Below the pieces are notes generated by a model that saw only the letters and a list, made by a program, of their open reading frames with translations, was not told the origin of the DNA and searched no databases. The position numbers were made by a program, and so were the translations under genes. Shown piece by piece: positions 4,202 through 18,979 of a stretch of DNA of 64,000 nt (positions are counted from its first letter, which is position 1; each line of letters opens with the position of its first letter). The DNA comes from an uncultured bacterium (GTDB taxonomy: Bacteria > Acidobacteriota > Thermoanaerobaculia > Multivoradales > JAHZIX01), in the NCBI GenBank assembly GCA_965368975.1, contig CBDUPA010000003.1, positions 96,001 through 160,000 on the forward strand. The letters run 5' to 3'.

Positions 4202-5659
4202 CTAGTTGAAGCTCGGGACGGAGCCGAGCAGGTACTTCAAGTCGTCGTCTTGCCAGCTGACCCCGGCTCCGACGAACAGCGAGTCGCCCTCGTCGAGCAA
4301 GAAGTCGTCGTAACCACCGAGCAGGTAGAAATTGGGGTTTAGGTGGTAGCGGGTGGTGAAGCGCAGGTGTGGGTCGAGGTCGTTCTCGCGCGAGAAGTCG
4401 AAGGCCTCGAGCGACAGTGTCAACCGCCGGCGTAGCATGTGGTAGTCGATCGCCGCGCCACCGGACGACTCGAACAAGCCGACGCGCAAGTCGGCGTCGT
4501 CGAAGTGGAAGCCGAACTGAGCCGACAGGGTGAAGCGGTCTTCTTCCGTGACGCGCTCGACCAAGGTCGTTTCGACCGTGCCGTCGGGCAGAGTGGTGGT
4601 GATGCGGTCGCTGCGCGTGCGCACGCGGCCGTTGGCGTCATCGACCAGCTGCACCTGGTAGAAGCGATTGTTGGGTGGTTGCAGGCGCAGGCCGATGGCG
4701 GCGCGTCCATCCTCGTGGTTGTCATAATAGACACCTTCGAGGCCGAGGTGGAACTCGATCTCGCGTACCTTGCCCAGCGTTTCGCTGAGCTGCGAGACGC
4801 CCTCCTCGACGCTGCCCAGGGTCGACACAAGGGTGTCGTGGGCCGCATCGTCGTAGATCAACTTGCCGAGCGTGCCTTCGCCACTGGCGATCTGGCCCGA
4901 GATGGCATTGAGGTTGTCGACCGAGGTCTCGAGGCGCTCGGAGAGTTCACGGATGTTGCTCAGGCTGCCGCGCAAGTCGCCTCGGTTCTCGCGCACCACT
5001 GCATCGACCTCGCCGATCAGACCGCGGATTTGCTGGCTGATGCGTGGCAGCTCGTCGGCCAGAGTGCCGCTGAAGCGCTCGAAGTTGCCTACCGTGGCGT
5101 CGACCTGGGCACGGTTGGCGGCCAGGAGCGCCCGTAGCTCGACGCTCGCCGCTTCCAGGTTGCGTACCAGACCGGCCAGGTGGCTGGCGGTGTCTTGCTG
5201 TACCAGCTCGCCGGTCAGTTCGGACAGCGAGCCGCCCAGGTTGCTCAGCTGACTCAGGGCTTCGTCGAAGCTCGGTGGTGCCGAGCCGGGCAGCACGCTG
5301 CCGGCAGAGAGCTTTGGAGCCCCTGGCGGTCCGGGGATCAATTCGATGTACTTGTCGCCGAGCAAGCCGGCGTTGGCGATCGCCGCGTGGCTGCCCTCCG
5401 GGAGCTGTACGTCCTGTTCCAGCAGCAGGGTGACCACCGCTCGACCGTCGCGCAACTCGATGCCGTCGACACGTCCGATGCGCACGCCCGCGACGCGCAC
5501 GGGCGCCTTGTCGTTGAGGCCGGCGACCGACTCGAACTCGGCCTCGATGCGTGCCGGCTCGCCTCCGAACAAGGAGATGTCCTCGACTTTGAGGATCAGG
5601 TAGGCGAGCACGGCGAGGCACAGGCTGACGAAGATGCCGACTTTGACGGTGGACGACAT
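4202..5659 (-). CDS. mlaD: MlaD/MCE-family protein with a long helical region and a C-terminal beta-barrel-like domain
   Basis: N-terminal TM, MCE motifs (VAGL...APVRVAGVRIGRV, GLLGDKYIEL), a coiled region with GEGTLGKLI, and amphipathic beta-strands at the C-terminus. Confidence 0.9.
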   Translation of the reverse strand: MSSTVKVGIFVSLCLAVLAYLILKVEDISLFGGEPARIEAEFESVAGLNDKAPVRVAGVRIGRVDGIELRDGRAVVTLLLEQDVQLPEGSHAAIANAGLLGDKYIELIPGPPGAPKLSAGSVLPGSAPPSFDEALSQLSNLGGSLSELTGELVQQDTASHLAGLVRNLEAASVELRALLAANRAQVDATVGNFERFSGTLADELPRISQQIRGLIGEVDAVVRENRGDLRGSLSNIRELSERLETSVDNLNAISGQIASGEGTLGKLIYDDAAHDTLVSTLGSVEEGVSQLSETLGKVREIEFHLGLEGVYYDNHEDGRAAIGLRLQPPNNRFYQVQLVDDANGRVRTRSDRITTTLPDGTVETTLVERVTEEDRFTLSAQFGFHFDDADLRVGLFESSGGAAIDYHMLRRRLTLSLEAFDFSRENDLDPHLRFTTRYHLNPNFYLLGGYDDFLLDEGDSLFVGAGVSWQDDDLKYLLGSVPSFN

Positions 5660-5699
5660 GGTGTTTCTCCTTGGTTGCGGCGGCGTTCCCGGGAGACGC

Positions 5700-6524
5700 T
5701 CAGCCCGCCTCGTCTATGGCTGCTTCTTCACTGAGCGGACCGTCGGCGCGACCTTCCAGGAACTGCCGCACGCGCGGGTCGTCGGAGGCCTGCAGTTCGT
5801 TCGGTGTCGCGGCGGCGATGATCTTGCCCCGGTGCAACATGGCGATACGGTCGCCGATGCGGAAGGCGCTGGGCAGATCGTGACTGATCGTGACGGTCGT
5901 CGGCTGCAAGGTCGCGCGGAGGTCGAGGATGACGTTGTCGAGGTTGGCCTTCATCACCGGGTCGAGGCCGGTGGTCGGTTCGTCGAAGAGCAGGATGCGC
6001 GGTTCGAGTGCGATGGCACGTGCAAAGCCAATGCGCCGGCGCATACCGCCGGAGAGCTCCGACGGCATCTTGCCGCCGGCGCCGCTCAGACGCACCAGCC
6101 GCAGGCATTCCTCGACCCGCGCCTCGATCTCGGCCCGGCGCAGCGAGCCCATGCGGCGCAGCGGGAAGGCAATGTTGTCGTGCACACTCATCGAGTCGAA
6201 GAGCGCACCTTCCTGGAAGGCCATGCCGAAGCGGCGGCGAAAGGCGGTCAGCTTGGGGCCGCTGAGGCCCGCCAGGTCGACGCCGTCCACTTCGACAGTA
6301 CCGGAATCCGGCTGCAGCAAGCCGATCATGTGCTTGAGTAGCACACTCTTGCCGGTGCCCGAGCCGCCGATGATGACCAGCGATTCGCCTTCGTAGATGT
6401 CGAGATCCGTGCCGTCGAGCACCTGCTTGCTGCCGAACGCCTTGCTGACGTCGCACAGGCGGATGGCGACGGTGCGCGTCGCGCTAGCAGTCGAGGCAGA
6501 TGTCGAGGCAGAAGGTGTGGGCAT
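5700..6524 (-). CDS. mlaF: MlaF-like ABC transporter ATP-binding protein
   Basis: Walker A GGSGTGKS, FQEGALFDSM, signature LSGGM, Walker B LLFDEPTTGLDP, and SHD. Confidence 0.92.
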   Translation of the reverse strand: MPTPSASTSASTASATRTVAIRLCDVSKAFGSKQVLDGTDLDIYEGESLVIIGGSGTGKSVLLKHMIGLLQPDSGTVEVDGVDLAGLSGPKLTAFRRRFGMAFQEGALFDSMSVHDNIAFPLRRMGSLRRAEIEARVEECLRLVRLSGAGGKMPSELSGGMRRRIGFARAIALEPRILLFDEPTTGLDPVMKANLDNVILDLRATLQPTTVTISHDLPSAFRIGDRIAMLHRGKIIAAATPNELQASDDPRVRQFLEGRADGPLSEEAAIDEAG

Positions 6525-6533
6525 CGGCTGGGC

Positions 6534-7280
6534 TCAGAACAGGATCTTGGTGAGAAAGAAGTCGGAGATCAGCACCGCGATGCTGGCCAGGACGACGGCG
6601 CGAGTGGTGGCCCGGCCGACGCCTTCGGCGCCGCCGCCGGTGTCGAGGCCCTTCTGGCAGCTGATCAGCGCCACCAGAAAGCCAAAGACAGCGGCCTTGA
6701 TCAGGCCGGAGGTGACATCGGACAGCTCCATGAACTGGAAGCTACTCTCGATGTAGGTGACCGGGTTGGCGCCGAACAGCCCGACCGCCACCAGGTAGCC
6801 GCCCGCGATACCCAAGGCATCCGCCAGGACGATCAGCAGCGGCATCATCAGCGTGGTGGCCCACACACGCGGTACCACCAGGTAGTGCACGGGGTTGGTG
6901 GCCAGCACCTCCAGTGCGTCGATCTGCTCGGTGACCCGCATGGCGCCGAGTTCGGCCCCCATAGCCGAGCCGCAGCGGCCGGCGATCATCAGGGCGCCGA
7001 GCACCGGCGCCAGCTCGCGCACCATCGACAGCGCGACGATGGAGCCGACATAGCCTTCAGCGTTGAAGCGTGCCAGCACGCTGAACGTCTGGAGGGCCAT
7101 CACCATACCGGTGAACATGGCGGTCAGCAACACGACAGGAACCGAGTGGATGCCCACGCGCTGCATCTGTAGAAAGAGCTGGCCGCCGTCGTAGGGTGGC
7201 CGTGGTGTCCACAGAAAGACCTGCCCGACCAGCTGCGCCAGTCGGCCCATTTGCTGGAAGAAGGTCTCGAGCAGTCTCAC
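6534..7280 (-). CDS. mlaE: MlaE-family ABC transporter permease
   Basis: RELAPV, AELGAMRVTEQIDALE and GGAEGVGRATT motifs in a multi-TM protein. Confidence 0.93.
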   Translation of the reverse strand: MRLLETFFQQMGRLAQLVGQVFLWTPRPPYDGGQLFLQMQRVGIHSVPVVLLTAMFTGMVMALQTFSVLARFNAEGYVGSIVALSMVRELAPVLGALMIAGRCGSAMGAELGAMRVTEQIDALEVLATNPVHYLVVPRVWATTLMMPLLIVLADALGIAGGYLVAVGLFGANPVTYIESSFQFMELSDVTSGLIKAAVFGFLVALISCQKGLDTGGGAEGVGRATTRAVVLASIAVLISDFFLTKILF

Positions 7281-7289
7281 CGTGGATTC

Positions 7290-9647
7290 TCAGGCCAACA
7301 AGGCCGTGAGTTCCGCCTGGGCGGTGTCACGGTAGGCTTGCAGCGTTGTACGCAGTTTCCCGTGTTCCGGCGTCAGCCTGCCGCTGCCGGGGGCATCCTC
7401 GCTCTCTTCGATGTGCGCTAACGCCTCGAGAGCCAGATCGAGCAGTTCGACGCAGCGGTCCGGCGTCAAGGTCTCGAGCGCTTCCTCGGCGGCGCGTTGC
7501 AGGTAGGGAAGGGCTTTGTGCCAGCGTGCACCGCGGAACCAGTGGTACGCCAGCGCCTCGACCGGTGCGCTGCTACCCCGGTTGCCGGGAGTCGGGGAAC
7601 TGCTCAGCTCCAGTGCTTCGGCGACATCCCGGTGCATTACCTGGCGCCGCTCCTCGCTGACGTAGTCGTAAATCGCCTGGCGAAGTGTCGAGTTGAGGAA
7701 TTCGAACGTCTCGTGCGCCTGCGGCCGTGACTCGTCGGGCAGCTCGGTGAAATCGGCTTGGCGGTGCGGCAGGGCGAGCCGCTGCTCGCGCCAGGTTCCG
7801 ATGTTGGCTAGGACCACCTCGATCTGCTCGTCGGCGGCGCGGAGCAACAGCTGCGGGTCGAAGTGTTGACCAGCGATGGCAGCCAGGGTCAGCAAGCGGC
7901 GCGCCGATGTCGGCAGGTTGCGCAAGCGTCGCACCGCAATCTCGCGCAGCAAGGCGTCACGATCCTCGGGTAGCGTCGGCAACGGAGCCACCAGGTGCCA
8001 GCTCCAATCGCCCTTTTTGGCCAGTACGCCTTCCTCGAACAACAGCTGCGTCAGCTCGCCGAGCAGGTTTGGTCGTGCACCGCCGTAGCGCTCGAAGAAG
8101 GCCGCTAGTTCCTGCGGCTTCTTGGCTTTGCCCAGCAGCGAGCTGGCGAAGCTCTCGACGGTGGCGCTGTCGAACGGTTCGAGCTGCGTCCTGTACAGGC
8201 GCCGCTCGGTCTCGAGCCGGCGAGTCAGTCGCTCCTGGTGTGGGTCGTCGCCGGTGGGAGAGCGTGCCGCGAGGAGCCAGACCGGTGCGTCCTCGAGGTG
8301 GTGCACGAGCTGGTACAACACTTCCAAGCTGGTGGCATCGGCCAGGTGGAGGTCGTCGATGAACAGGACGAGTGGACCGCCGTTGTCCTCGACCCAGGCG
8401 CGCGCCAAAGCACGCAGGAAGTCGGCCATGTGCGCAGGGCAGCGCCGCCGCAGTTCCTCGCGAGTGAGGGTACTCGGCGGTGGCAAGTCGGGTCGTAGGT
8501 GCTGGATCTCGGGCAGCATTCGCGTCAGCTCGGTGAGTTGCTCGATGTCCAGGCTGCCGAGTGCGTTCTGCACCCGCATCGGTTGATCGAGCAGCGCTCG
8601 GTGCAGCAACTCAGCGGCCGGTCGGTAGCCGCTGACGTTGGCGAAGGGGGCCCAGCGGCTGCGCAGGACGAGGGGTAGCGGAGGTGACACGATCTCGCGC
8701 AGGATGCGGTCGACCAGTGCTGTCTTGCCGGTGCCGGAATCGCCTTCGAGCAGCACCAAGCAGCCGCTGCGCCGCTGTTGCCACCAGCGCATGAGCTGTC
8801 CGAGCTCTACTTGGCGACCGGAGAAGGGAAGCATGGGACGCTTCGGCGCCCAGCTCTCGATCTCCCAAGTGCGTGCTTCTTCGAGTGGCTTCTGCGCCAG
8901 GATCAGGCGGTAGAGCGAGACGGTGTCCTCGCTCGGCGCGACCCCCAATTCGGCGTCCAACAGCTGGCGGCAGAGGTCGAACTGCTGGATCGCCTCGCCG
9001 CGTTTGCCTGCCAACGAGTAGAGCCGGATCAGGCTGGCGTGCGCCGGCTCGGAAAGCGGCTCGATGTCGATCAGGCGGCGCGCGTAGCGAATGCCCGAGC
9101 TGTACTCGTGGTGCTCCAAGCAGTAGTCGACCAGCGTGCGCAGCGAGTCGCCTGCCGCTTCGCGGTACTTCTCCTGCTCGCCTGCCATCCAATTCTCGAA
9201 CTCGGGCGCGTCGCGCACGGCGAAGCCCTTGAGCAGATCGCCGCGAAAGAGTTCCACAGCTCCTGCGAGGTGGTGGATGCGGTCGGCACCGCGCGCCATT
9301 ATGCCTCGCGAGCGCGTGCGTTCGAAGGCCTCGAGGTCGAGCCAGTACTCGACTTCCGGCGTCATGCGGACGCTCTGCCGAGTCGTCGAAATCGGAGAGG
9401 CCGCGCCGACTTTCTGAAACGCCGCGCGCAGATTGTAGAGCGATTGACGCAGGCTGCGCCGGGCGCTGTCGCCATCGGCGTCTGCCCACAGCAGCCCCAT
9501 CAGGTCGTCGCGGCTGTGTCCGCGATCCCGCAGCACAGTCAGGTAGGCGAACAGGGCGCGTACCTTCTGGGACTCGAAACCTGTGACCGGCTCGCCGCCA
9601 TAACGGACATCGAAGCCGCCGAGCAGGCGGATCTCCAATCGGCTCAT
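7290..9647 (-). CDS. AfsR/SARP-like transcriptional regulator (wHTH-BTAD-AAA ATPase-TPR)
   Basis: IRLLGGF, KVRALFAYL, LMGLLW and SLRQSLYNLR (wHTH). BTAD motifs RGDLL, EPLSE and ELGVAPS. Walker A GDSGTGKT and Walker B LFIDDLH. Start placed at ATG 9647. Confidence 0.9.
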   Translation of the reverse strand: MSRLEIRLLGGFDVRYGGEPVTGFESQKVRALFAYLTVLRDRGHSRDDLMGLLWADADGDSARRSLRQSLYNLRAAFQKVGAASPISTTRQSVRMTPEVEYWLDLEAFERTRSRGIMARGADRIHHLAGAVELFRGDLLKGFAVRDAPEFENWMAGEQEKYREAAGDSLRTLVDYCLEHHEYSSGIRYARRLIDIEPLSEPAHASLIRLYSLAGKRGEAIQQFDLCRQLLDAELGVAPSEDTVSLYRLILAQKPLEEARTWEIESWAPKRPMLPFSGRQVELGQLMRWWQQRRSGCLVLLEGDSGTGKTALVDRILREIVSPPLPLVLRSRWAPFANVSGYRPAAELLHRALLDQPMRVQNALGSLDIEQLTELTRMLPEIQHLRPDLPPPSTLTREELRRRCPAHMADFLRALARAWVEDNGGPLVLFIDDLHLADATSLEVLYQLVHHLEDAPVWLLAARSPTGDDPHQERLTRRLETERRLYRTQLEPFDSATVESFASSLLGKAKKPQELAAFFERYGGARPNLLGELTQLLFEEGVLAKKGDWSWHLVAPLPTLPEDRDALLREIAVRRLRNLPTSARRLLTLAAIAGQHFDPQLLLRAADEQIEVVLANIGTWREQRLALPHRQADFTELPDESRPQAHETFEFLNSTLRQAIYDYVSEERRQVMHRDVAEALELSSSPTPGNRGSSAPVEALAYHWFRGARWHKALPYLQRAAEEALETLTPDRCVELLDLALEALAHIEESEDAPGSGRLTPEHGKLRTTLQAYRDTAQAELTALLA

Positions 9648-9758
9648 GCGAAATCTCCCTGGCGATATGTCGGCATCCCCGGGGGTTGGCGTCCAACGAG
9701 ATGCTGGGAGCATTCCATCACGAACGGCGGGGCGGTTCAATGAAAGTGTTTTCGGTCT

Positions 9759-9779
9759 CCTGATGCTCTCCTGACGAAG
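9759..9779 (+). promoter_or_regulatory. Heptamer direct repeat with 11-bp phase, candidate SARP/BTAD operator 1
   Basis: CCTGATG-CTCT-CCTGACG-AAG. Confidence 0.6.
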
Positions 9780-9950
9780 AATGTGGAAACTCAAGATCGA
9801 TGACAGCGAAAGGACTGCAATCGAGCCTTGCTAAGCAGGTCGAGAACCGCGGTCCGGCAGCATGCTCAGAAGGGTTTGTGTTCTGTTTTTGCAATGCGCA
9901 AGTGGCTATGAGTCCGGAGTTTCGGTCCCAACCTGGCCTCCGGGCGGCCG

Positions 9951-9983
9951 CCTGACGCTTTCCTGACGAAGGCTCTGCAGAAT
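9951..9983 (+). promoter_or_regulatory. Heptamer direct repeat with 11-bp phase plus candidate -10, operator 2 upstream of the surface protein
   Basis: CCTGACG-CTTT-CCTGACG-AAG, with CAGAAT 9 nt after the second heptamer. Confidence 0.65.
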
Positions 9984-10187
9984 CACACTCGCCGCCCTTG
10001 GATGGGCGTTCTTGACAGATAGAAAACCGACTAAAAGCAACAGTCGAATTCCACTGAGATGATTATCATTCACCGTTTCTTCGATGCCATCCGCGATCGC
10101 CGGCCCACGCGCCGGCTGAACGCAGTGCAGAGAGATTCCGTCCGGCGAGCCATCCCAGGTCGTCGGGATTTTGGGGGGAAGTCAGCC

Positions 10188-13100
10188 ATGAGCACAGTGC
10201 AGCACACTTACAACAAGCGCCGGACCGGGGAGTTACTGCTGATCGCGATCAGCCTGACGTTCTTGGGGTTCAGCGCGCCGGCCCAGGCGCAGGTCAATTG
10301 CCTGCCCTCCTGCGACGCCAACGACGGCCGTTTCCTGGCCATCGCTGGCTCCGGCCTCAACACGCTGAGCGACGCCGCCTTCGATATCTCGCTCGCCGTT
10401 CCGGCGGACGCCACCTCGTTCTCCATCGGCTTCTTCGATGGTGATTCGGGCAAAGTCGACGCTGTCACTGGCGCTCGCTACTGGGATACGGGAGTCCTGG
10501 CGACTTTCCGCTACGACATCTACGCTGATCCCGAAGCCGACGGTACGGGCTCTGTGCTGGTGTATAGCGAGCTGAGTGATGTGATGCCGGACAACGGCTG
10601 GCACGATCTGGTTCTGCCGACCGACCCGGCCGCGTTGACGCCAAGTGGTAACTTCTTCTACCGCCTGGAGATTACGCTCTTGGATCCGGCGCTGGTCACT
10701 TCCAACGCCTTCAAGGTTCGCACCAGTGGCGTTGCGACCATCGAGGTCTTCGAGCAGCCCTTCGGATTCATCGCCGCGCTCGCTAGCCTGCAAGATGCGC
10801 AGACCATCTTTCCCAGCTTCCCTTCGATGGTGCCGACGACCTACGATGGCTCGTTCAGCTTCTTCCTCGACGTGCCGGTCAGTCAGTCCGAGCTACTGAT
10901 GTGGGACGGTGATTTGGACTACGGCAGCTACGATGGCGTCACCGCTGATACCAACGATCCAAACACCCCCGATGCGCCGTACCTGCCGCCCTTCGCGGTG
11001 CCGGGCACGGCTTCCGAGGGTGTCGCTGTAGGGAGCGCCGGTAGCACCGGTCAGCCGGCGGACGATCGCAACCCGGCTGGGCTGGGAGGCTACCTGTTGC
11101 GTTCGCCGTCCATCGCATACAACGTGTTTGCTCCCGACGGGGCCATCTATAGCAACAGCAACCCCTCCGGCAACATCGAGTGGGAGAAGTTCCTGATCTC
11201 GACCGCGCCTTTCGATCCCACGGTGAGCGACGCACAGGCGGCGCAGTTGCCTGCTGGAATCTACGAAGTGCGCGCCGAAGGCGTGGACATGGCGAACCTC
11301 AATGCCTGGTTCTTCTCGCGTCCGGTCGTTTGCGTTGGCTCGGACGGAACGCCTTGTGATCCCCTGCGTCCCTACCTGATCGGGGATCGGGTTTGGCTGG
11401 ACGCCAATGGGGATGGCATCCAGGACGTTGGCGAACTCGGTATCGCGGGTGTCGAGCTCGAAATGCTCGACGCGGACGGTTTGCTCGTGCGGACGACCAC
11501 CACGGACGTCAGCGGCGAGTACAGCTTCGGTGTCCTCGGCAACCTCGTGTACACCGTGCGCGTCGCGGCCTCGAACTTCGGCCCCGGCGGTGCGCTGGAA
11601 GACCTCGAAGCGACCACCCTCGACGAGCTGAGCACCTCGGTGACTGACTCCAACGACATGGGGCTCGACTTCGGCTACACCGGCAACGGCTCGATCGGTG
11701 ATCTGGTGTGGTACGACGCCAACGGCGACGGCATCTTCAACGAGGACGCCGGTTCCGGCATCGGCGGCGTCCAGGTGACACTCACCTCGGCTGGTGAAGA
11801 TGGCCTGCTGGGAACCGCTGACGACGTCTTCGTAACTTCGACGACCACTGCCGACGACGGCAGCTACCTGTTCGACGGCCTGTCGCCAGCTAACTACCGT
11901 GTCGAGCTCGACGTCGCGACCCTGCCGACCGGGCAGGTCCTGACCACGAGCGGCTCGGTGGACGTGCTGCTGGCGAGCGGTGACGAGATCACCGACGCCG
12001 ACTTCGGCGCTCGCGTCGCGACCGGCCAGGGCGGCAGCATCGGTGACTTGGTGTGGCTGGACTTTGACGCTGACGGTCTCTTGGATGGTGGCGAGAGTGG
12101 CCTCAACGGTGTTGCCGTTGTACTGGCTCTCGACGTCGATGGTGACGGTGAGGCAGAGCTGACTGCGGCCACGATCACCAGTACGCTGAATGGCCAGGCC
12201 GGTTCGTACCTCTTCGGCGACCTACCCGCTGGCGTCGCGACGGTGACCGTCGACGGTGCCACGCTGCCGGCGGGCGCCATCCAGACGTACGACGCCGACG
12301 GAACCGCGAGCGCCAACAAGGCGACCGCCTCGGTGCCAGACAAGGCGAACGTTCTGACCTTCGACTTCGGCTACCGCGGAACCGCCAGTCTCAACGGTCT
12401 GGTGTGGTACGACGTGGACGCCAACGGCAGCATCGACGCCGGTGAGCCGGGCTTCGAGAACGTCACCGTCGACCTGCTCGACGACAACGGCGAAGTGGTT
12501 GCCTCGACCACGACGGATGGTACCGGAGCCTACAGCTTCGCCAACCTGCTGCCGGGCACCTACACGGTACGGATCGATACCACGACGCTGCCGGACAACG
12601 TCTCCCAGACGTTCGAGCAGGACGGTACCCTGACGGGCACGATCACCGTGTCTTTGGGTATCGGTCAGAGTGCCGGCAACTTGACCTTCGGCTACACCCG
12701 CATCTTCCCGCTGGGCAATAGCTGCATGGGCAGTGCCGAAACCGATGCGTATGGCGGCAGCGGCGGCCACTCTGTGTGGATGCCGGGCATCGCCACGGAC
12801 CTAGTGTTCGAGCCCTTCGCCGGCTCCCTGATCGAGCATGGAGACGGTACCGCGACGCTCAGCGGTGTGGCGCGCAGCGCCGATGACGCAGACAAGGCAT
12901 TCGAGGTCACGGTGACCCTCAGCGACTACCGCCAGACGGCGCCCGCGGGCAGCCCGAAGAAGGAGCTGAGTGCCTCGGCCTACGTCGAGAACGGTGGTCC
13001 GGTCGATCCCTCGACCTGGTACTACTACAACGCCTTCAGCGGTACCTTCGTCGGTGTCGGTGACTGGCAGGGTGCCGTGGTCGAGATCCAGCTGGTCGGT

Positions 13101-14114
13101 GCCGCCTTCCAGGTCGGTGTCGGTGCCAACGGCAAGAATGTCAACGATGGTGCCTCTGCCTGGTTCACCTGGCAGGTCACCCAGCAGCCGGAGCACGGAC
13201 CGTCGCTGAAGACCAGCGGTCAGGGCGACTTCAATCTCGACTTCGTCGGCTGCCTCGGCTTCTGCGAGCGCTCCACCGGCTACTGGCGCAACCACACGGA
13301 CGCCTGGCCCACGTACTCGCTGGAGATCGGCGGCGTCGTCTACGGCTTCGATGACCTCTATGAGTTCGTCACCTACGGCGGGCCCGATGCCACGATGAAG
13401 CTGGCGCGCCAGTTGGTGGGTGCCAAATTGAACCTGGTAGCCGGGGCCGACGCCTCGATCCTGTCAGTCGTCACCGAGGCCGACGTCTTCCTGGCGCAGT
13501 ACCCGCCGGGCAGCAACCCCAAGGGTTCGGCCAAGAACGAAGGCAACGCGATCAAGGATCAGCTGGATGCCTACAACACGGGGGCGACCTGCGAAGGGTT
13601 CTACGAACTCGATCCGGCCGACAATGGCGGCGATGGTGGCTCGGAGACTCCGGGCAGCACCCCCGTCGGTGGCGACCCCGTCGGTGGCGACCCCGTCGGT
13701 GGCGACCCCGTACAGATCGTCCTCGACACCGATGACGAGGGCGTTGAGCTGGTCGGTACCTGGCAGTCGAGCACTCACGTCTCCGGGTACCACGGTGCGC
13801 ACTACCGTCACGACCAGAAGAAGTACAAAGGACACAAGAGCGTCCGCTACACCCCGGACCTGCCGGAAGCCGGTGAGTATCAGGTGTACATGTGGTGGAC
13901 CTCCAACAGCAGCCGTGCCGACAACGTACCGGTCGACATCCACCATGCTGGTGGTACCGCTACGGTGACGGTGAACCAAGAATCGAACGGCGGCGAGTGG
14001 GTTCTGTTGGGTACCTACTCGTTCAACGCGGGCACTGCCGGTAGCGTCGTCATCCGGACGGATGGCACCAACGGCTATGTGGTCGCGGATGCCGTCAAAA
14101 TTTCCAAGCCCTAG
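10188..14114 (+). CDS. Large secreted/surface protein: unknown N-terminal domain, four SdrD-B-like repeats, unknown domain, GYWRNH domain, C-terminal golvesin/xanthan-lyase-CBD-like domain
   Basis: Signal peptide ending AQA-Q. Four (I/L)GD/NG.VW.D...DG repeats with Ca-loop-like acidic motifs at about 11380-12700. TGYWRNH...LARQL.GAKLNL motif. C-terminal YTPDLPEAGEYQVYMWW...GGEWVLLGTYSF...VVADAVK. Confidence 0.85.
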   Translation: MSTVQHTYNKRRTGELLLIAISLTFLGFSAPAQAQVNCLPSCDANDGRFLAIAGSGLNTLSDAAFDISLAVPADATSFSIGFFDGDSGKVDAVTGARYWDTGVLATFRYDIYADPEADGTGSVLVYSELSDVMPDNGWHDLVLPTDPAALTPSGNFFYRLEITLLDPALVTSNAFKVRTSGVATIEVFEQPFGFIAALASLQDAQTIFPSFPSMVPTTYDGSFSFFLDVPVSQSELLMWDGDLDYGSYDGVTADTNDPNTPDAPYLPPFAVPGTASEGVAVGSAGSTGQPADDRNPAGLGGYLLRSPSIAYNVFAPDGAIYSNSNPSGNIEWEKFLISTAPFDPTVSDAQAAQLPAGIYEVRAEGVDMANLNAWFFSRPVVCVGSDGTPCDPLRPYLIGDRVWLDANGDGIQDVGELGIAGVELEMLDADGLLVRTTTTDVSGEYSFGVLGNLVYTVRVAASNFGPGGALEDLEATTLDELSTSVTDSNDMGLDFGYTGNGSIGDLVWYDANGDGIFNEDAGSGIGGVQVTLTSAGEDGLLGTADDVFVTSTTTADDGSYLFDGLSPANYRVELDVATLPTGQVLTTSGSVDVLLASGDEITDADFGARVATGQGGSIGDLVWLDFDADGLLDGGESGLNGVAVVLALDVDGDGEAELTAATITSTLNGQAGSYLFGDLPAGVATVTVDGATLPAGAIQTYDADGTASANKATASVPDKANVLTFDFGYRGTASLNGLVWYDVDANGSIDAGEPGFENVTVDLLDDNGEVVASTTTDGTGAYSFANLLPGTYTVRIDTTTLPDNVSQTFEQDGTLTGTITVSLGIGQSAGNLTFGYTRIFPLGNSCMGSAETDAYGGSGGHSVWMPGIATDLVFEPFAGSLIEHGDGTATLSGVARSADDADKAFEVTVTLSDYRQTAPAGSPKKELSASAYVENGGPVDPSTWYYYNAFSGTFVGVGDWQGAVVEIQLVGAAFQVGVGANGKNVNDGASAWFTWQVTQQPEHGPSLKTSGQGDFNLDFVGCLGFCERSTGYWRNHTDAWPTYSLEIGGVVYGFDDLYEFVTYGGPDATMKLARQLVGAKLNLVAGADASILSVVTEADVFLAQYPPGSNPKGSAKNEGNAIKDQLDAYNTGATCEGFYELDPADNGGDGGSETPGSTPVGGDPVGGDPVGGDPVQIVLDTDDEGVELVGTWQSSTHVSGYHGAHYRHDQKKYKGHKSVRYTPDLPEAGEYQVYMWWTSNSSRADNVPVDIHHAGGTATVTVNQESNGGEWVLLGTYSFNAGTAGSVVIRTDGTNGYVVADAVKISKP
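13659..13711 (+). repeat. 15-bp tandem repeat (ACCCCGTCGGTGGCG, about 3.5 copies) encoding a PVGGD linker
   Basis: Directly visible and in frame within the surface-protein linker. Confidence 0.9.
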
Positions 14115-14126
14115 AGCCTCCCTCCA

Positions 14127-14154
14127 GAGGGCGCGGGGATGTTCCCCGCACCCT
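14127..14154 (+). terminator. GC-rich hairpin after the surface-protein stop codon
   Basis: GAGGGCGCGGGGA-TGT-TCCCCGCACCCTC. No immediate U tract. Confidence 0.5.
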
Positions 14155-14278
14155 CTCAGCTCTGGGATTGGGAACCGTGGCAAAACCCATGGGGCTAGCT
14201 ATCTTCGCCAGGTCGCTGTGGCAAGCAGCGGCCTCTTTTTTGTTTTCAGATCTTTTTTTCTGCCAGAAACAAAGATCC

Positions 14279-14312
14279 CCTGACAAACCCCTGACTCTGT
14301 GGTTTGTACAGT
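14279..14312 (+). promoter_or_regulatory. Heptamer direct repeat with 11-bp phase plus candidate -10, operator 3 upstream of the lasso cyclase
   Basis: CCTGACA-AACC-CCTGACT, then TACAGT at 14307-14312, which ends 8 nt before the ATG. No RBS is visible, so the transcript may be leaderless. Confidence 0.6.
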
Positions 14313-14320
14313 AGTCTTCT

Positions 14321-16228
14321 ATGGGACTCATCTGCTGCATCGCCCACTTCGACGAGCAGCCAGTCAGCGAGCAGATCCTCGCCGACCTACTGGCTGGCGC
14401 ACGGCATCGGACGCCCTACGGTGTCGAGACCCTGCCCGCAGCTGCGGCGTGCCTGGCGGTCGCGACCGTACCCGCGAGCCAGCAGAGCCTAGGAAACGGC
14501 ATCGCGCGCGCAGCGCTGGCTCGCTTCGCAGATGTTTCTCTGTGCGCCGATGTGCGCCTGGATGCGCGCGATGAACTGATCGATCGGATGGCGGGTGCTG
14601 GCCAGGAGATCGACGCTTGTCTCGCCCGTGGGCGAGACGCAGACTTGCTGCTGGCTGCCTGGTTGCGTTGGGGAGAAGACTGCGTCCACCACCTGCTCGG
14701 TGATTTCGCGTTCGTCGTTTGGGACGCTCGTGCCCGGCGACTGTTTGCAGCGCGAGATGTCGCCGGGGTCAAGCCGCTGTGTTTCGCGCTCCTGCCGTCC
14801 GGTGTCACTGTGGCCTCTGAAGCCCAACAACTACTGCGACATCCTGGGGTCCGGCGCGAATTCGACGAGTTGGCGATCGCACTGCATCTGGTCAACCGGG
14901 GCGGCGACGACGAGCGCACCTTCTTCCGCGCGATCCGGCAACTGGTGCCCGGCCACGCTCTCAGCGTCGCGGCTGGAGAACCGCCGCGGACCTGGCGCTA
15001 TTGGCATCCAGAAGACTTGCCGCTGCTGCGCTTCGAGCGCGAGGAAGAGTACGCTCTCCACTTTCGCCAGCAATTCGATCGCGCCGTGTCGGACCGTCTG
15101 CGGGGCGCGGAGGCCGGCGCGGCAGTCCTGATGAGTGGAGGTCTGGACTCGACTTCGGTGGCGGCAGTGGCCAGCCAGCAGTTGGGGGCCGCGCGACTGC
15201 GCGTCTTCAGCTACCGCTTCGACCGCTACCGCCAGTGCGACGAAGGCGAGTACATCGAGGCTATGGCCTCGACCTTTGGCCTCCGCGTCGAGAATCTGGC
15301 GGCAGAGAAGTTTCCGCTCTTCGGTGGTCGCGAGGGTGTTCGGTGTGATCGGGAGACGCCTTTTCGAGGCTGGGAGCCACCACTTCGCTACGTATTGGAG
15401 CAGTTACGAGCCTCGGGAACCCGCATCTTGCTGACGGGCCATGGGGGAGACAACGCACCGCGCGGCAGTGCCCATCTCTATGCCGATCTGCTGTGGCGGC
15501 GCCCGTGGCGTGCTCTTGGCGACATGTGGCGCCATGCTCGTGCTTTTGGGGTCTCTATCGGGCGCCTGCTGCGCGTCTGTGTACTCAGTCCGCTGCTACG
15601 ACGAATGCCGGGAGCCTACTGGTGGCGGCGCCTGAGCGATCGTTTGCCACACTTACCGCCATGGTTGCATCCGGAGCTGGCTCGGCGCACCGAGTTGCAG
15701 CGGCGCTTGTGCGAGTCGTCGCCAGGTCTGGCCGTCAGCGGTGGTTGTGCGCGTCGTCAGATCCTGGGGCTGGTCTTGCCCTGGGGACCGGTGGCCCGTG
15801 CCGTCAGTGCCTACGACCGGATGGCTTGCCGCTTCGGTGTCGAGCCCCGTCATCCCTTCCTCGACCGCCGCGTGGTCGAGGCAGCTGTGCGCTGTCCACC
15901 GGAGCAGCTGTTTCACCAGGGCTGGTTCAAGTCTCTGGTCCGCCGTGCCCTGCCGGAGTTGCCCGCAGCCGTTCGCCAGCGGCACTGGAAAACCAGCTTT
16001 CGCCCCTACCTGAACGCCGCGATGCGGGTCGAAACCTGGATGGGGGAGTTGCTCGACGGTCCGCTGCTCTCCGCGCAGCTCGGATTCATCGAGCCGCAGC
16101 CGTTGCGGTTGGCGATGAAAAGCTTTCTTCAAGGGGCGGTGACACCGATGGATCATCCATCCTTTGCGGTAACTCTCGAGTTGTGGTTGCAACAAATGGC
16201 ACCTGAAAGCGATCACAAATTCTGCTAA
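14321..16228 (+). CDS. Lasso peptide isopeptide-bond-forming cyclase (asparagine synthetase-like)
   Basis: LLGDFAFVVWD, ARD..G.KPL, PP-loop MSGGLDST, LLTGHGGD and EPRHPFLDRRVVE. It lacks the N-terminal catalytic Cys of AsnB (starts MGLIC) and lies next to a lasso precursor. Confidence 0.85.
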   Translation: MGLICCIAHFDEQPVSEQILADLLAGARHRTPYGVETLPAAAACLAVATVPASQQSLGNGIARAALARFADVSLCADVRLDARDELIDRMAGAGQEIDACLARGRDADLLLAAWLRWGEDCVHHLLGDFAFVVWDARARRLFAARDVAGVKPLCFALLPSGVTVASEAQQLLRHPGVRREFDELAIALHLVNRGGDDERTFFRAIRQLVPGHALSVAAGEPPRTWRYWHPEDLPLLRFEREEEYALHFRQQFDRAVSDRLRGAEAGAAVLMSGGLDSTSVAAVASQQLGAARLRVFSYRFDRYRQCDEGEYIEAMASTFGLRVENLAAEKFPLFGGREGVRCDRETPFRGWEPPLRYVLEQLRASGTRILLTGHGGDNAPRGSAHLYADLLWRRPWRALGDMWRHARAFGVSIGRLLRVCVLSPLLRRMPGAYWWRRLSDRLPHLPPWLHPELARRTELQRRLCESSPGLAVSGGCARRQILGLVLPWGPVARAVSAYDRMACRFGVEPRHPFLDRRVVEAAVRCPPEQLFHQGWFKSLVRRALPELPAAVRQRHWKTSFRPYLNAAMRVETWMGELLDGPLLSAQLGFIEPQPLRLAMKSFLQGAVTPMDHPSFAVTLELWLQQMAPESDHKFC

Positions 16229-16336
16229 AGTGTAGCGGTTGCACCATTCAGCTCGAACCGACGACAAGTACTCACGGCCGACTGGTGGAACCATGGAACT
16301 TAACTTCACATCAGGGTTTTTCAGGGAGAGACGAGA

Positions 16337-16522
16337 ATGACTGAGACGAGCGAGGAGAAGCTGGACTTGACGCCGTCCAGGCGTCCCTACCGCTGTCCGC
16401 GATTGATCGAGTACGGCTCTTTGGAGCAGCGGACGCTGGGTTCCATTGCTGCTTTCGACGATGATTTCGTCACCGGGACCAGTGCTCAGATCATCGCGCC
16501 ACCACCGCCACCGGTCGATTGA
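16337..16522 (+). CDS. Lasso peptide precursor
   Basis: Leader YRCPRLIEYGSLEQRTL matches Y-x-x-P-x-L-x3-G-x5-T(-2). Core GSIAAFDDDFVTGTSAQIIAPPPPPVD has Gly1 and Asp at positions 7-9. GGGAGAG RBS. Confidence 0.88.
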   Translation: MTETSEEKLDLTPSRRPYRCPRLIEYGSLEQRTLGSIAAFDDDFVTGTSAQIIAPPPPPVD

Positions 16523-16542
16523 CCTTCTGAGGCTCGCGGACG

Positions 16543-17571
16543 GTGCCGCTGTTCGGGTACGTCTGTCGGGGAGCGATGCTGCCCGGTGGCCGTCTGACTG
16601 CGGCTGAACTAGGTGCTGTCGAAGCTGGAATTCCCGCTTCGATCACCTCCCCGCTTTCCGTGTGCTACCTCGACCTCGAGTCCTCCTGTGATGACCTGCC
16701 ATGGACGTGGACGCAGCGCCTGCTCTTTGAGAGTCCTCACGTCGATCCCTATGACCAGCAGCCCGTGCTGCGTATCTTCGAGCTGCCGGACGGCTTCGGC
16801 TTGTGCTGCCACCGCATCGCCGATTTCCAGCTGAAGCCCGGAGGGCTACTGCGCTACCGTCTGCACCGACCGGAGTGGGGTTACCTGGCAGAGATCTGTC
16901 TGCTCGGCACGGTGATGGCGTTTGTGCTGGAAGCCGACGCGCATCTGGCGCTGCATGCGTCCGCTCTGGTTCCGCCTGGGCACGACACTGCCGTCGGGTT
17001 CTTGGCCGCCCAGGGCAGCGGCAAGAGCGTGCTGGCAGCGTCTTGGGCCTTGCGCGGTGCTCGCTTGCTCAGCGACGACATCGTGGCCGTGGAACTCGCC
17101 ACAGCGTCGGTGGGTGGTACGGTACGTCCGAGCTATCCTCGCCTGCGTCTGTGGCCCGAGGGAGCAAGAGGGTTGGGGCTGGAGGGAGCGCCTGACCAGG
17201 GGACTGGCGCTGGCTCGGCGCAGCTACTGCGCCCGGACAGCGAGAAGTTGCTGATCGACGCCGGGCCGCATGGTCTCGACATCTTCGACGCCAACCTGGC
17301 ACCGCTGCGCTGCCTCTATGTACCCCAACGCTTGGACGACTCCAGCGAGTCCATCCAGATCGAGCCCCTTGCCCCTCGGGAGGCGTTGTTCGAGTTGCTC
17401 CGCTGCAGCTTTCTGCCACCGGATCTGCTGGCCGCTGTCGGCTTCCAGGCCGCACGCTTGGATCTGCTGGCACGGCTGGTGCGCGACGTGCCGGTCAAGA
17501 GGCTGAGCTATCCCAGCGGCTACCAGCATCTTCCGCGCGTCCACGACACCGTGCTCAGCGACCTGTGTTAG
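16543..17571 (+). CDS. HPr kinase-like P-loop kinase (lasso-peptide-associated type)
   Basis: ALHASAL, Walker [13 protein letters not shown] and YPRLRLWP. Starts 20 bp after the precursor. Confidence 0.82.
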
Positions 17572-17614
17572 CGTCCACCGCACATCCGTGAACGGCCACC
17601 GAGGAGTCCCCCCC

Positions 17615-17905
17615 ATGAGCCGACCGAAGAAGCTGAGCGATGCCGAGATCCAGCAGCGCCTGGGCGCCAGACCCGCCTGGAAACTAGACGGCGACAAGTT
17701 GTACCGAGAGTTCCAGTTCGACGACTTCGTCGCCGCCTTCGGCTTCATGGCGCGCGTGGCGCTGGTCGCAGAACGTAGGAACCATCACCCGGAGTGGTTC
17801 AACGTCTACAACCGGGTGCAGGTGCACCTGGCGACGCACGATGCCGGCGGCATCACCGAGCTGGACTTCCAACTGGCCGAAGACATGGATCGGCTGGCTG
17901 GCTAG
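17615..17905 (+). CDS. phhB: Pterin-4-alpha-carbinolamine dehydratase
   Basis: [25 protein letters not shown]...[21 protein letters not shown]. Confidence 0.95.
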
Positions 17906-18864
17906 CCTGCCGCCTTGACGTAGGACTCCAGGTCCGCCTGGCTGACCAGCGGTTCGCCGGGGCTGACGTTGTACAGTTTGCCGTCGAACAGCCAGCGCTC
18001 GAGTTCCTCGACCTGACTGTAGAGGTGATCGAAGGAATCGACGACGAAGAGAAGCGGTTGGTAGGAGTCGATCTCGAAGTACTGGTTGATCACCCAGCCG
18101 AGATGGAAGTCGTAGCGCTGCACCTCGGGTGAGTCGACGGCATGCGCGATCTCGCCGTAGGAACTGAGCAGACCGCTGCCGTAGACCTTCAGTTCGTCTT
18201 TCTTGCCGCCACTCCTCATCAAGCCGAACTCGACGGTGAACCAGAAGAAGCGCGCCAGCGCTTTGATGGCGCTATCCAGGCGTCGCAGTGAGTCGTCGTC
18301 CTTGGTCAGGATCTCGGCCGTCCGCAGCGCGGTCTGATGGGCGACTTCACCGAAGCGCACGAGGACTTCCGCGAAGTCCTTGTCGGTATGCATCGGCACG
18401 TGACCAGCGACATCATGGAAGAGGTCCGGTTCCTGCAAGTAGTCGAGCGAATCGAGGTTGCGCACCGTGATGGTGGTCGGGAATTCGCGCCGGCGCAGGC
18501 AGTCGAAGAACAGGTACGACGGGATGTAGCCGCTGACCGCTTTGGCCTTGAAGCCCGTGAGCGGTGCCAAGAATTGGTTCACGTCCTCCAATCGTGGCAC
18601 GGCCTCTGGATCCATGGCCAAGCAGTCGATCCCTTCGATGAACTTGTCGTGCGCGTACTGACGCCAGCGCGGCAGCATGCGCGAGTAGAGGCGCCGCCAG
18701 GCTTCGTGGTTGTGCTCGCTGTAGAGCTCGTAGGGCTGACGGATGAACAGGTCGCCGCGGTCGCGCGCGCCTTCGATGAAGGGTGCCCGGTTGGTCGTCA
18801 AATCGTTGCCCGGAGTCGCCGTTGCGGAGGCTGTCTCGGCTGCGATGGTAGTTGTGGTGCTCAT
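17902..18864 (-). CDS. phhA: Phenylalanine 4-monooxygenase (biopterin-dependent aromatic amino acid hydroxylase)
   Basis: [27 protein letters not shown] and [11 protein letters not shown], carrying the His-His-Glu iron ligands. Confidence 0.92.
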
Positions 18865-18979
18865 GGCTCGATCTCCCTGGTGCAATGCAAGTCGACGCGA
18901 GAGTAGCGTCGCAGATCATCGTCGGAGCAGGCTCTGCAGCCCTTCCGGCTTTGACTTTATCGGCATCGGACTGCCGGGT

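Follow-up and report, generated by a model that had tools for sequence, protein, structure and literature searches.

An AfsR-like regulator and a candidate phased-repeat operator beside the genes for a giant secreted protein and a lasso peptide in an uncultured acidobacterium

We analysed a stretch of 64,000 nucleotides (below, the window; G000:C3:96001-160000, where G000 is this genome) from the assembly of an uncultured member of the Thermoanaerobaculia, Acidobacteriota (7.13 Mb, 59 contigs, 65% G+C). Part of the window encodes a large regulator of the SARP family that resembles AfsR and, in the opposite direction, a giant secreted protein followed by a lasso-peptide cassette. We consider it probable that this regulator activates the gene of the giant protein, and more weakly the lasso operon, by way of pairs of phased repeats. 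In the core of this proposal, namely the pairing of the regulator with this candidate operator taken jointly with the giant protein as target, we have good confidence, because the sites are rare, lie on one strand, keep a fixed distance to a -10-like hexamer, are conserved across families and occur together with the regulator in whole genomes.

The regulator

The regulator gene lies on the minus strand (7290..9647). It starts at ATG 9647 rather than at the TTG of the long open reading frame (ORF) and encodes 785 amino acids (aa), in which a winged helix-turn-helix (wHTH, about aa 27-91) is followed by BTAD (103-250), an AAA_16 ATPase (275-458) and a helical C-terminal part. The BTAD profile PF03704 is covered in full (1-146) directly after the wHTH, with 72.6 bits against a cut-off of 22.1. 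AAA_16, in which a Walker A motif is visible, scores 75 bits and is also above its Pfam cut-off. A profile built from 12 homologs of the regulator aligns query residues 4-319 with residues 26-349 of AfsR (PDB 8k60, E 5.4e-19). The same profile also aligns EmbR (2fez 10-324), and these two are the closest solved proteins. It is through this profile alignment that the N-terminal OmpR-type winged helix characteristic of SARPs was found. A preliminary description of this DNA, made from its letters alone, had called the protein a SARP/AfsR-like regulator, and the two Pfam assignments and the match of the homolog profile to AfsR bear this out. In large SARPs of the AfsR subtype, TPR repeats come after the ATPase (NOD) domain. 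Here the C-terminal 330 aa gave no Pfam match to TPR repeats; TIGR03903 (NCBIfam) aligns aa 272-751 far below its cut-off.

Full-length homologs of the regulator, 34-39% identical, are present in most genomes of the same order. The best public matches come from Thermoanaerobaculia, Acidobacteriota, and shorter relatives of about 300 aa are labelled Anaerolineae, Chloroflexota.

The candidate operator

Three sites of one architecture stand on the plus strand in intergenic DNA. Site 1 (CCTGATG-CTCT-CCTGACG, 9759-9776, with AAG to 9779) is 112 nt from the regulator ATG, is oriented away from the regulator gene and is followed by the -10-like hexamer GAAACT (9786-9791). Site 2 (CCTGACG-CTTT-CCTGACG, 9951-9968, with AAG to 9971) is followed by CAGAAT (9978-9983), and site 3 (CCTGACA-AACC-CCTGACT, 14279-14296) by TACAGT (14307-14312). 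The phasing of the repeats is 11 bp in all three. The preliminary description had listed these three phased CCTGAY pairs, with an extended form including AAG shared by sites 1 and 2, and had placed the first two between the regulator and the giant gene and the third just 5' of the cyclase gene. Positions, shared form and placement are all correct. It had also assigned a -10-like hexamer to sites 2 and 3; the hexamers are there, and the restriction to those two sites falls away since GAAACT follows site 1.

This geometry is familiar. In SARP promoters the direct repeats are 11 or 22 bp apart and the 3' repeat is 8 bp from the -10 (PMC10936776; statements credited here to this and the other cited papers refer to parts of them). 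The resemblance to such promoters suggested earlier is upheld by the 11-bp phasing at all three sites and by a distance of 8-9 bp between the 3' repeat and the -10. These intergenic regions gave no -35/-10 pair of the sigma-70 type in a consensus scan. We also considered that the repeats might themselves be a sigma-70 -35 element and rejected this, because neither heptamer has a spacing of 16-18 nt to the -10 and because that scan was negative there.

How rare is the arrangement? CCTGAYN5CCTGAY matches three times in the window, compared with a mean of 0.03 in 100 dinucleotide-preserving shuffles of it, none of which (0/100) reaches three. Over both strands of the whole 7,125,974-base genome there are six matches, where about five are expected from hexamer frequencies, so that the motif is not over-represented genome-wide. 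Half of the six fall in this 4.5 kb and on one strand. The genome scan proposed in the preliminary description has therefore a divided outcome: the clustering at this locus is real, and a genome-wide excess is not seen.

Conservation beside regulator homologs

We collected 91 loci with regulator homologs in all, among them 80 public ones (1.36 Mb), 50 of which have a full-length regulator. The pattern CTGAY-N6-CTGAY occurs upstream of the regulator, pointing away from it, in 10 of 11 loci from related genomes. In the 80 public loci, the 76 kb lying within 1 kb upstream of the regulator hold 54 matches, and 54/54 are on the strand that points away; the other 1.28 Mb hold 17 on that strand and none on the opposite one. 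Counted by locus, a site within 1 kb upstream is found at 33 of the 50 full-length regulators, always pointing away. At most Thermoanaerobaculia loci a distal site precedes the giant gene, and at some homolog loci a site stands at the place equivalent to site 1 with the identical GAAACT hexamer.

A strict pattern, CTGACGNTYYCCTGAC, was searched in 41 related whole genomes with a reversed control. It gave 22 matches, and none in the control. Of these, 15 are located in the 1 kb upstream of a regulator homolog. The seven genomes without a regulator match have no strict-pattern match; many regulator-bearing genomes among the 41 are unmatched as well. These counts, together with those for the full-length loci, agree with the expectation that the repeat would be co-conserved with the regulator.

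The spacing is as regular as the repeat. From the second CTGAC to the -10 there are 10 nt in 48 of 54 sites of other genomes (11 nt in five and 9 nt in one), so that 8-9 bp separate the 3' heptamer from the -10. The hexamer consensus in these 54 sites is C-A-T-A-C-T (nAnAcT), with A2 and T6 at 90%. Sites remote from any regulator gene have the same geometry.

The recognition helix reads LRQ..Y where the sites are CTGACG, and LSQ..F where they are CTGATA (Chloroflexota loci L057, L065 and L069). Helix and repeat may thus co-vary as a specificity pair, which is suggestive only, because these three loci are close kin.

Could some other factor bind the repeat? One might propose a response regulator of the OmpR family, this genome's second BTAD protein (C3:226410-227132) or a conserved protein of about 80 aa described below. 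OmpR-type wHTH proteins generally bind phased direct repeats, and our pairing of protein with DNA is drawn from sequence only. Yet the regulator alone is a constant neighbour of the sites, in two phyla and in long and short SARP forms, and its recognition helix changes together with the repeat sequence. The genomes without it lack the strict pattern. The protein of about 80 aa is absent from this genome while the sites are still present, and the second BTAD protein is 25% identical to the regulator over aa 24-253 only. We regard binding by another factor as improbable.

A different objection accepts binding by the regulator and supposes that it represses, or that the main use of the sites is autoregulation of the divergent regulator gene. 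Site 1 does lie in a shared divergent region close to the regulator ATG, and the regulator's own promoter was not located. Against this, all sites point away from the regulator and stand a fixed 10 nt from the -10 of the downstream gene; there is no -35; the arrangement as a whole is that of SARP-activated promoters (PMC10936776); and sites far from the regulator gene keep identical geometry. Repression or autoregulation is in our opinion very unlikely, and activation by the regulator would account better for these features.

The giant secreted protein

The giant protein (1308 aa) is encoded on the plus strand at 10188..14114, in an ORF open from 10059. Its start is most likely ATG 10188, where a Shine-Dalgarno-like GGGGGGAAG run comes before and a signal-peptide-like stretch after. 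Behind the signal peptide it has an N-terminal beta-sandwich domain of 370 aa (N-domain), four SdrD_B Ca-binding repeats, a middle domain, a GGDPV linker and a C-terminal Golvesin_C. Pfam gives SdrD_B 217 bits in four stretches and Golvesin_C 129 bits. The predicted model of the N-domain has a pLDDT of 84.6. We tried to assign its fold and rejected the candidates. A Foldseek search of PDB returned two rows with E below 0.001, and their TM did not exceed 0.2. The best VIA-align Z was 7.8, for GOLD, CBM and collagen-binding beta-sandwiches and for residues 9-164 only, which is a common arrangement.

The preliminary description had seen in it an SdrD-type surface adhesin. This name does not hold, as only the B-type repeats are common with MSCRAMMs, and the score with NF012181 is 139.7 bits against 2500. 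Like staphylococcal SdrD, the giant protein has four B-type Ca-binding beta-sandwich repeats. Unlike it, the sequence has no Ser-Asp repeat region and no LPXTG, its N-domain is of a kind peculiar to it, matched only by generic beta-sandwiches, and its C-terminal domain is Golvesin_C. "Adhesin" and "signalling" as roles of the module are guesses, and the earlier idea that it is for attachment or signalling and not for antibiosis found no support.

A homolog of the giant protein is divergent to the regulator in 32 of the 80 loci (E up to 1e-5), and at E up to 1e-3 one is found in 41/91. The N-domain, present in one copy in this genome, occurs in 39/91 loci. Among the 41 related genomes it is found in 16; a full-length regulator is present in fifteen of these and lacking in G028. 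Seven regulator-bearing genomes gave no N-domain match. Of the seven strict-pattern matches far from the regulator, three precede N-domain genes, one with the protein of about 80 aa in front. The earlier suggestion that regulator and giant gene would be kept together thus fits what is seen, side by side and divergent at the loci and jointly in whole genomes. As part of the whole reading, and with the same probability, we propose that the giant protein is a conserved divergent target of the regulator.

Several loci (L027, L058, L043 and L035) and genomes (G001, G007, G025 and G027) have two to four N-domain genes, often in tandem near the regulator.

A small protein between the sites

The conserved protein of about 80 aa had been missed in the preliminary description. 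In 38 of the 80 loci it is encoded between the proximal and the distal site (for example L033:9574-9816 on the minus strand), and it also accompanies the short SARPs of Chloroflexota. AlphaFold gives it a beta-beta-beta-alpha core (pLDDT 78); it belongs to no Pfam family, and a fold search of PDB at E up to 0.001 came back empty. Atlas look-ups returned only unnamed clusters. Where further copies of the protein are encoded in those loci, a site stands immediately before them, and for this reason it may be the most regular first target of the regulator. The afsS gene is next to afsR, much as the small-protein gene, the nearest predicted target, adjoins the regulator in these relatives.

This genome has lost the gene. 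A six-frame search of the whole genome gave no match, and three frames of 9777-10190 gave negative scores only. What is left is a full-strength site 1 with no recognisable gene behind it. Nothing else was found to take its place: Rfam had no match at E up to 1 in 9640-10200, the RNA fold of 9795-9950 is unremarkable (z -0.29), and the 51-aa ORF at 9800-9955 has no tblastn match in the 91 loci.

A position weight matrix and a candidate wider regulon

A position weight matrix (PWM) was trained solely on the 54 sites of other genomes and run on this one, with the reversed genome as null. Sites 1 and 2 are the top two of the whole genome, with 34.0 each. Their core scores are 26.6 and 26.4 bits; the reversed genome has nothing above 24 bits, three matches above 16 and eight above 14. 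After them come C10:133102, C7:234000, C6:113381, the pair C21:26114 and C21:24703, a match in a coding region and then site 3, which ranks ninth with 20.1 combined and 15.8 core.

Some of these matches, all on the plus strand, have plausible genes behind them. The one on C10 precedes secreted Peptidase_S74 proteins and the one on C7 a FIST-domain protein. The two on C21 precede a pair of paralogs 71% identical to each other, followed by two giant CarboxypepD_reg/SdrD_B proteins. We offer the C10, C7 and C21 sites as tentative candidates for a wider regulon. They are tentative because FIST and C21-family homologs in relatives have no upstream site: a site above 10 bits was found upstream in 0/3 FIST loci and in 0/8 loci of the C21 paralog family.

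These two negatives also weigh against our proposal as a whole, and other points do so too. The match at C6:113381 (+) points into a convergent gene. A search for sequencing runs covering 9000-17600 listed none, of RNA or of DNA. Since the training sites came from the homolog loci, PWM counts on these loci are circular, and only the regex and strict-pattern counts are independent; the related genomes themselves are not independent samples. The wHTH, when the first approximately 100 residues of the regulator are run alone, reaches 22.4 bits with Trans_reg_C against a Pfam cut-off of 26.2. At 17 of the 50 full-length loci no regex match lies within 1 kb of the regulator. These 17 include loci labelled Acidimicrobiia and Actinomycetes, and two (L043 and L052) that have a match further upstream. 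L013 and L021, also among the 17, labelled Anaerolineae and full-length, carry a different upstream repeat and no CTGAC repeat. At these two loci the recognition helix is of the CTGACG type, yet the pair upstream of the regulator is ACGTGAA...CGCGA-like.

The lasso cassette and site 3

Three genes follow the giant gene on the plus strand. The first (14321..16228) encodes an Asn-synthase-like cyclase of 635 aa, with 139 bits for Pfam Asn_synthase; among NCBIfam models the one for lasso cyclases, NF033535, matches it best, with 301 bits where the cut-off is 525. The second (16337..16522), with GGAGAG 6 nt before the ATG, encodes a lasso precursor of 61 aa. It was recognised by the lasso leader motif: its leader has Y-x2-P-x-L-x3-G-x5-T-x, and its core has Gly-1 and Asp at positions 7-9. 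Precursors with the same leader pattern are found in 11 other regulator loci. The third (16543..17571) encodes an HprK-related kinase of 342 aa, a likely lasso-precursor kinase, in which His, GSGKS and DD motifs are visible; TIGR04352 gives it 37.5 bits against 200.

The preliminary description had spoken of a lasso-RiPP cassette (RiPP, a peptide made on ribosomes and modified after translation). Cyclase, precursor and kinase stand; the leader protease B2 and the RiPP recognition element B1 are not in the cassette. A pair of B2 (Transglut_core3) and B1 (PqqD) is encoded on another contig (C22:18866-19583 on the minus strand, the same as L107:5284-6001), beside a PurK-like ATP-grasp gene, with no repeat site upstream. 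Since this B1 shares 51% identity with the B1 that lies within the L028 cluster, the genome could still mature the peptide with the C22 pair.

A hairpin resembling an intrinsic terminator, with a 10-bp stem and a T-run, lies at 14210..14244 (+), between the giant gene and site 3. A scan for such structures found six in total where 4.5 are expected in shuffles, which is not above chance, so that this hairpin rests on its position and stem quality. If it acts as a terminator, the cyclase would need a separate promoter. TACAGT ends 8 nt before the cyclase ATG, there is no Shine-Dalgarno sequence, and the mRNA starting there would consequently be leaderless or nearly so.

Does site 3 belong with the other two, or are sites 1 and 2 the operator, site 3 a chance look-alike and the lasso cassette an independent neighbour? 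There are reasons to take the second view seriously. Site 3 has 15.8 bits compared with 26-27 for sites 1 and 2, within the range which the reversed genome also yields. The G conserved at position 7 is missing from both its heptamers, and the spacer between them is not rich in T. A cyclase homolog is present in only 13 of the 80 loci, and eight other cyclase loci have no site within 700 nt upstream of the cyclase. Neither B1 nor B2 is in the cassette, and the distant pair is not preceded by a site.

Other facts speak for a functional site 3. This genome has about 11 real matches of at least 15.8 bits in 14.25 million positions, and we calculate a probability of about 1e-4 that one of them falls, correctly oriented, in the 206-nt gap. 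The second-best PWM score over the 700 nt upstream of the cyclase is -7.9. The -10-like hexamer is at the right distance, and the hairpin upstream makes a separate cyclase promoter necessary. The lasso precursors in the other regulator loci count here as well; at precursor-bearing loci the cyclase is 3' of the giant gene on the same strand, with a gap of 53 nt in L028. L034, the only other locus with a pre-cyclase site, has a strong one (30.3 bits) before an operon of small protein and cyclase. A kinase homolog occurs in 9/80 loci, and giant gene and cyclase occur together in 10/80. On balance, the placement of site 3, the terminator, the synteny in a subset and the strong site of L034 suggest that the lasso link in this genome is reasonably likely; the look-alike explanation we consider possible and rather unlikely.

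The membership of the lasso cassette in the regulon, as claimed at the outset, is accordingly a weaker claim than that of the giant gene: the site and its -10 are present, the score is low and the cyclase is infrequent. The synteny proposed for regulator, giant gene, cyclase and precursor is likewise kept in part. Regulator and giant gene stay together, and cyclase and precursor are found with them in a subset of loci only.

Neighbouring genes

Directly downstream of the regulator and on the same strand is an operon of the Mla type for lipid transport (MlaD, ABC ATPase, MlaE; 4202-7280, minus strand). The regulator loci of other genomes have no homologs of it. At 17588-18885, 3' of the kinase, a gene for pterin-4a-carbinolamine dehydratase (+) and a convergent one for a biopterin-dependent aromatic amino acid hydroxylase (-) form a pair that is not conserved in related loci.

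Proposed mechanism

We suggest the following. Two protomers of the regulator would sit side by side on two CTGACG repeats phased by 11 bp. In promoters with a -10 (nAnAcT) and no usable -35, the repeats would take up the -35 and spacer region, and the dimer bound there would bring in the housekeeping holoenzyme of RNA polymerase, as happens with AfsR at afsS. The result would be activation rather than repression, presumably in response to a signal received by the ATPase and the C-terminal part.

From site 1 a transcript would start near 9797. In relatives it would serve the small protein; here, where the gene has been lost, it may simply read on. Site 2 would drive the giant gene from a start near 9990, about 200 nt before its ATG. 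Site 3, weaker and behind the terminator, would drive a leaderless operon of cyclase, precursor and kinase, the product of which is probably a phosphorylated lasso peptide.

Comparison with known systems

AfsR of Streptomyces coelicolor (PDB 8k60, 8jke and 8hvr) is the nearest known parallel. Like our regulator, it has a wHTH, BTAD, an ATPase module and a helical C-terminal part. In its structure two neighbouring protomers occupy two 11-bp repeats, and these overlap the -35 (PMC10936776). The afs box at afsS is also comparable, with two 11-bp repeats over the -35 and spacer, a weak -10 and no usable -35 (PMC10936776). The similarity is at the level of profiles and is not close, as it extends over the first approximately 320 residues with the E-value given above. 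The differences are several. The regulator has 785 aa where AfsR has 993, its operator repeat is CTGACG, it belongs to the Acidobacteriota (Thermoanaerobaculia), with short forms in Chloroflexota, and not to Actinobacteria, and its conserved main target would be a giant secreted protein.

A SARP gene beside lasso-peptide genes is found also in the A127-LP cluster of Actinoalloteichus fjordicus, where the adjacent SARP raises expression from the lasso promoter (PMC5974421). That system is actinobacterial, and no operator is defined in the parts of that paper cited here (PMC5974421). Here, unlike there, the lasso cassette is an occasional passenger behind the giant gene, and it comes with a kinase and without B1 and B2.

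The kinase has its own parallel in BsfK of Bradymonas sediminis, a lasso kinase that is HprK-like, with His, G-x-G-K-S and D-D motifs (PMC10368454). As in the phosphorylated lasso peptides of that kind, the cassette has an Asn-synthase-like cyclase and a precursor with Thr at -2 and Gly at position 1; the kinase motifs are the same, and the genome has discrete B1 and B2. Unlike in those systems, B1 and B2 are on another contig, cyclase and kinase score below the NCBIfam cut-offs, and a Pfam scan found no ABC exporter or nucleotidyltransferase in the cassette.

A 2024 review states, in the part cited here, that SARPs are "exclusively found in actinobacteria" (PMC10972967). Literature searches in which subscription journals were not covered found nothing on SARP or BTAD proteins in Acidobacteria and Chloroflexi, and none on lasso peptides in Thermoanaerobaculia. 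Already known are SARPs, the geometry of their repeats and the control of one actinobacterial lasso cluster by a SARP (PMC10936776, PMC5974421, as far as cited). New are the phylum, a defined candidate repeat, the conserved small and giant proteins as targets, and the lasso operon as an optional passenger.

Significance

One speculative extension we hold to be doubtful. In it SARPs are not confined to Actinobacteria, and they are part of an old conserved module in Thermoanaerobaculia and some Chloroflexota. The module would consist of a SARP with a CTGACG or CTGATA operator, the small beta-beta-beta-alpha protein as its first target, one or more giant secreted proteins with their peculiar domain and, in a subset, a phosphorylated lasso peptide. 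In the boldest form the lasso peptide would be no antibiotic; it would be a self-made signal, or a partner of the giant protein, that is sensed by the ATPase and C-terminal part of the regulator, which would close a positive loop.

More modestly, the full architecture of an AfsR-like regulator occurs in an uncultured class of Acidobacteriota, with a candidate operator in SARP geometry and with conserved targets. The candidate operator, CTGACG-nTTy-CCTGACG followed after 9 nt by nAnAcT, offers organisms still lacking genetics a regulatory part that can be tested. It may also provide a handle to switch on linked lasso clusters heterologously, as has been done with an actinobacterial SARP and its promoter (PMC5974421). 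Finally, the operator points to what may be the core of a regulon, a family of giant secreted proteins and a family of small proteins of unknown function.

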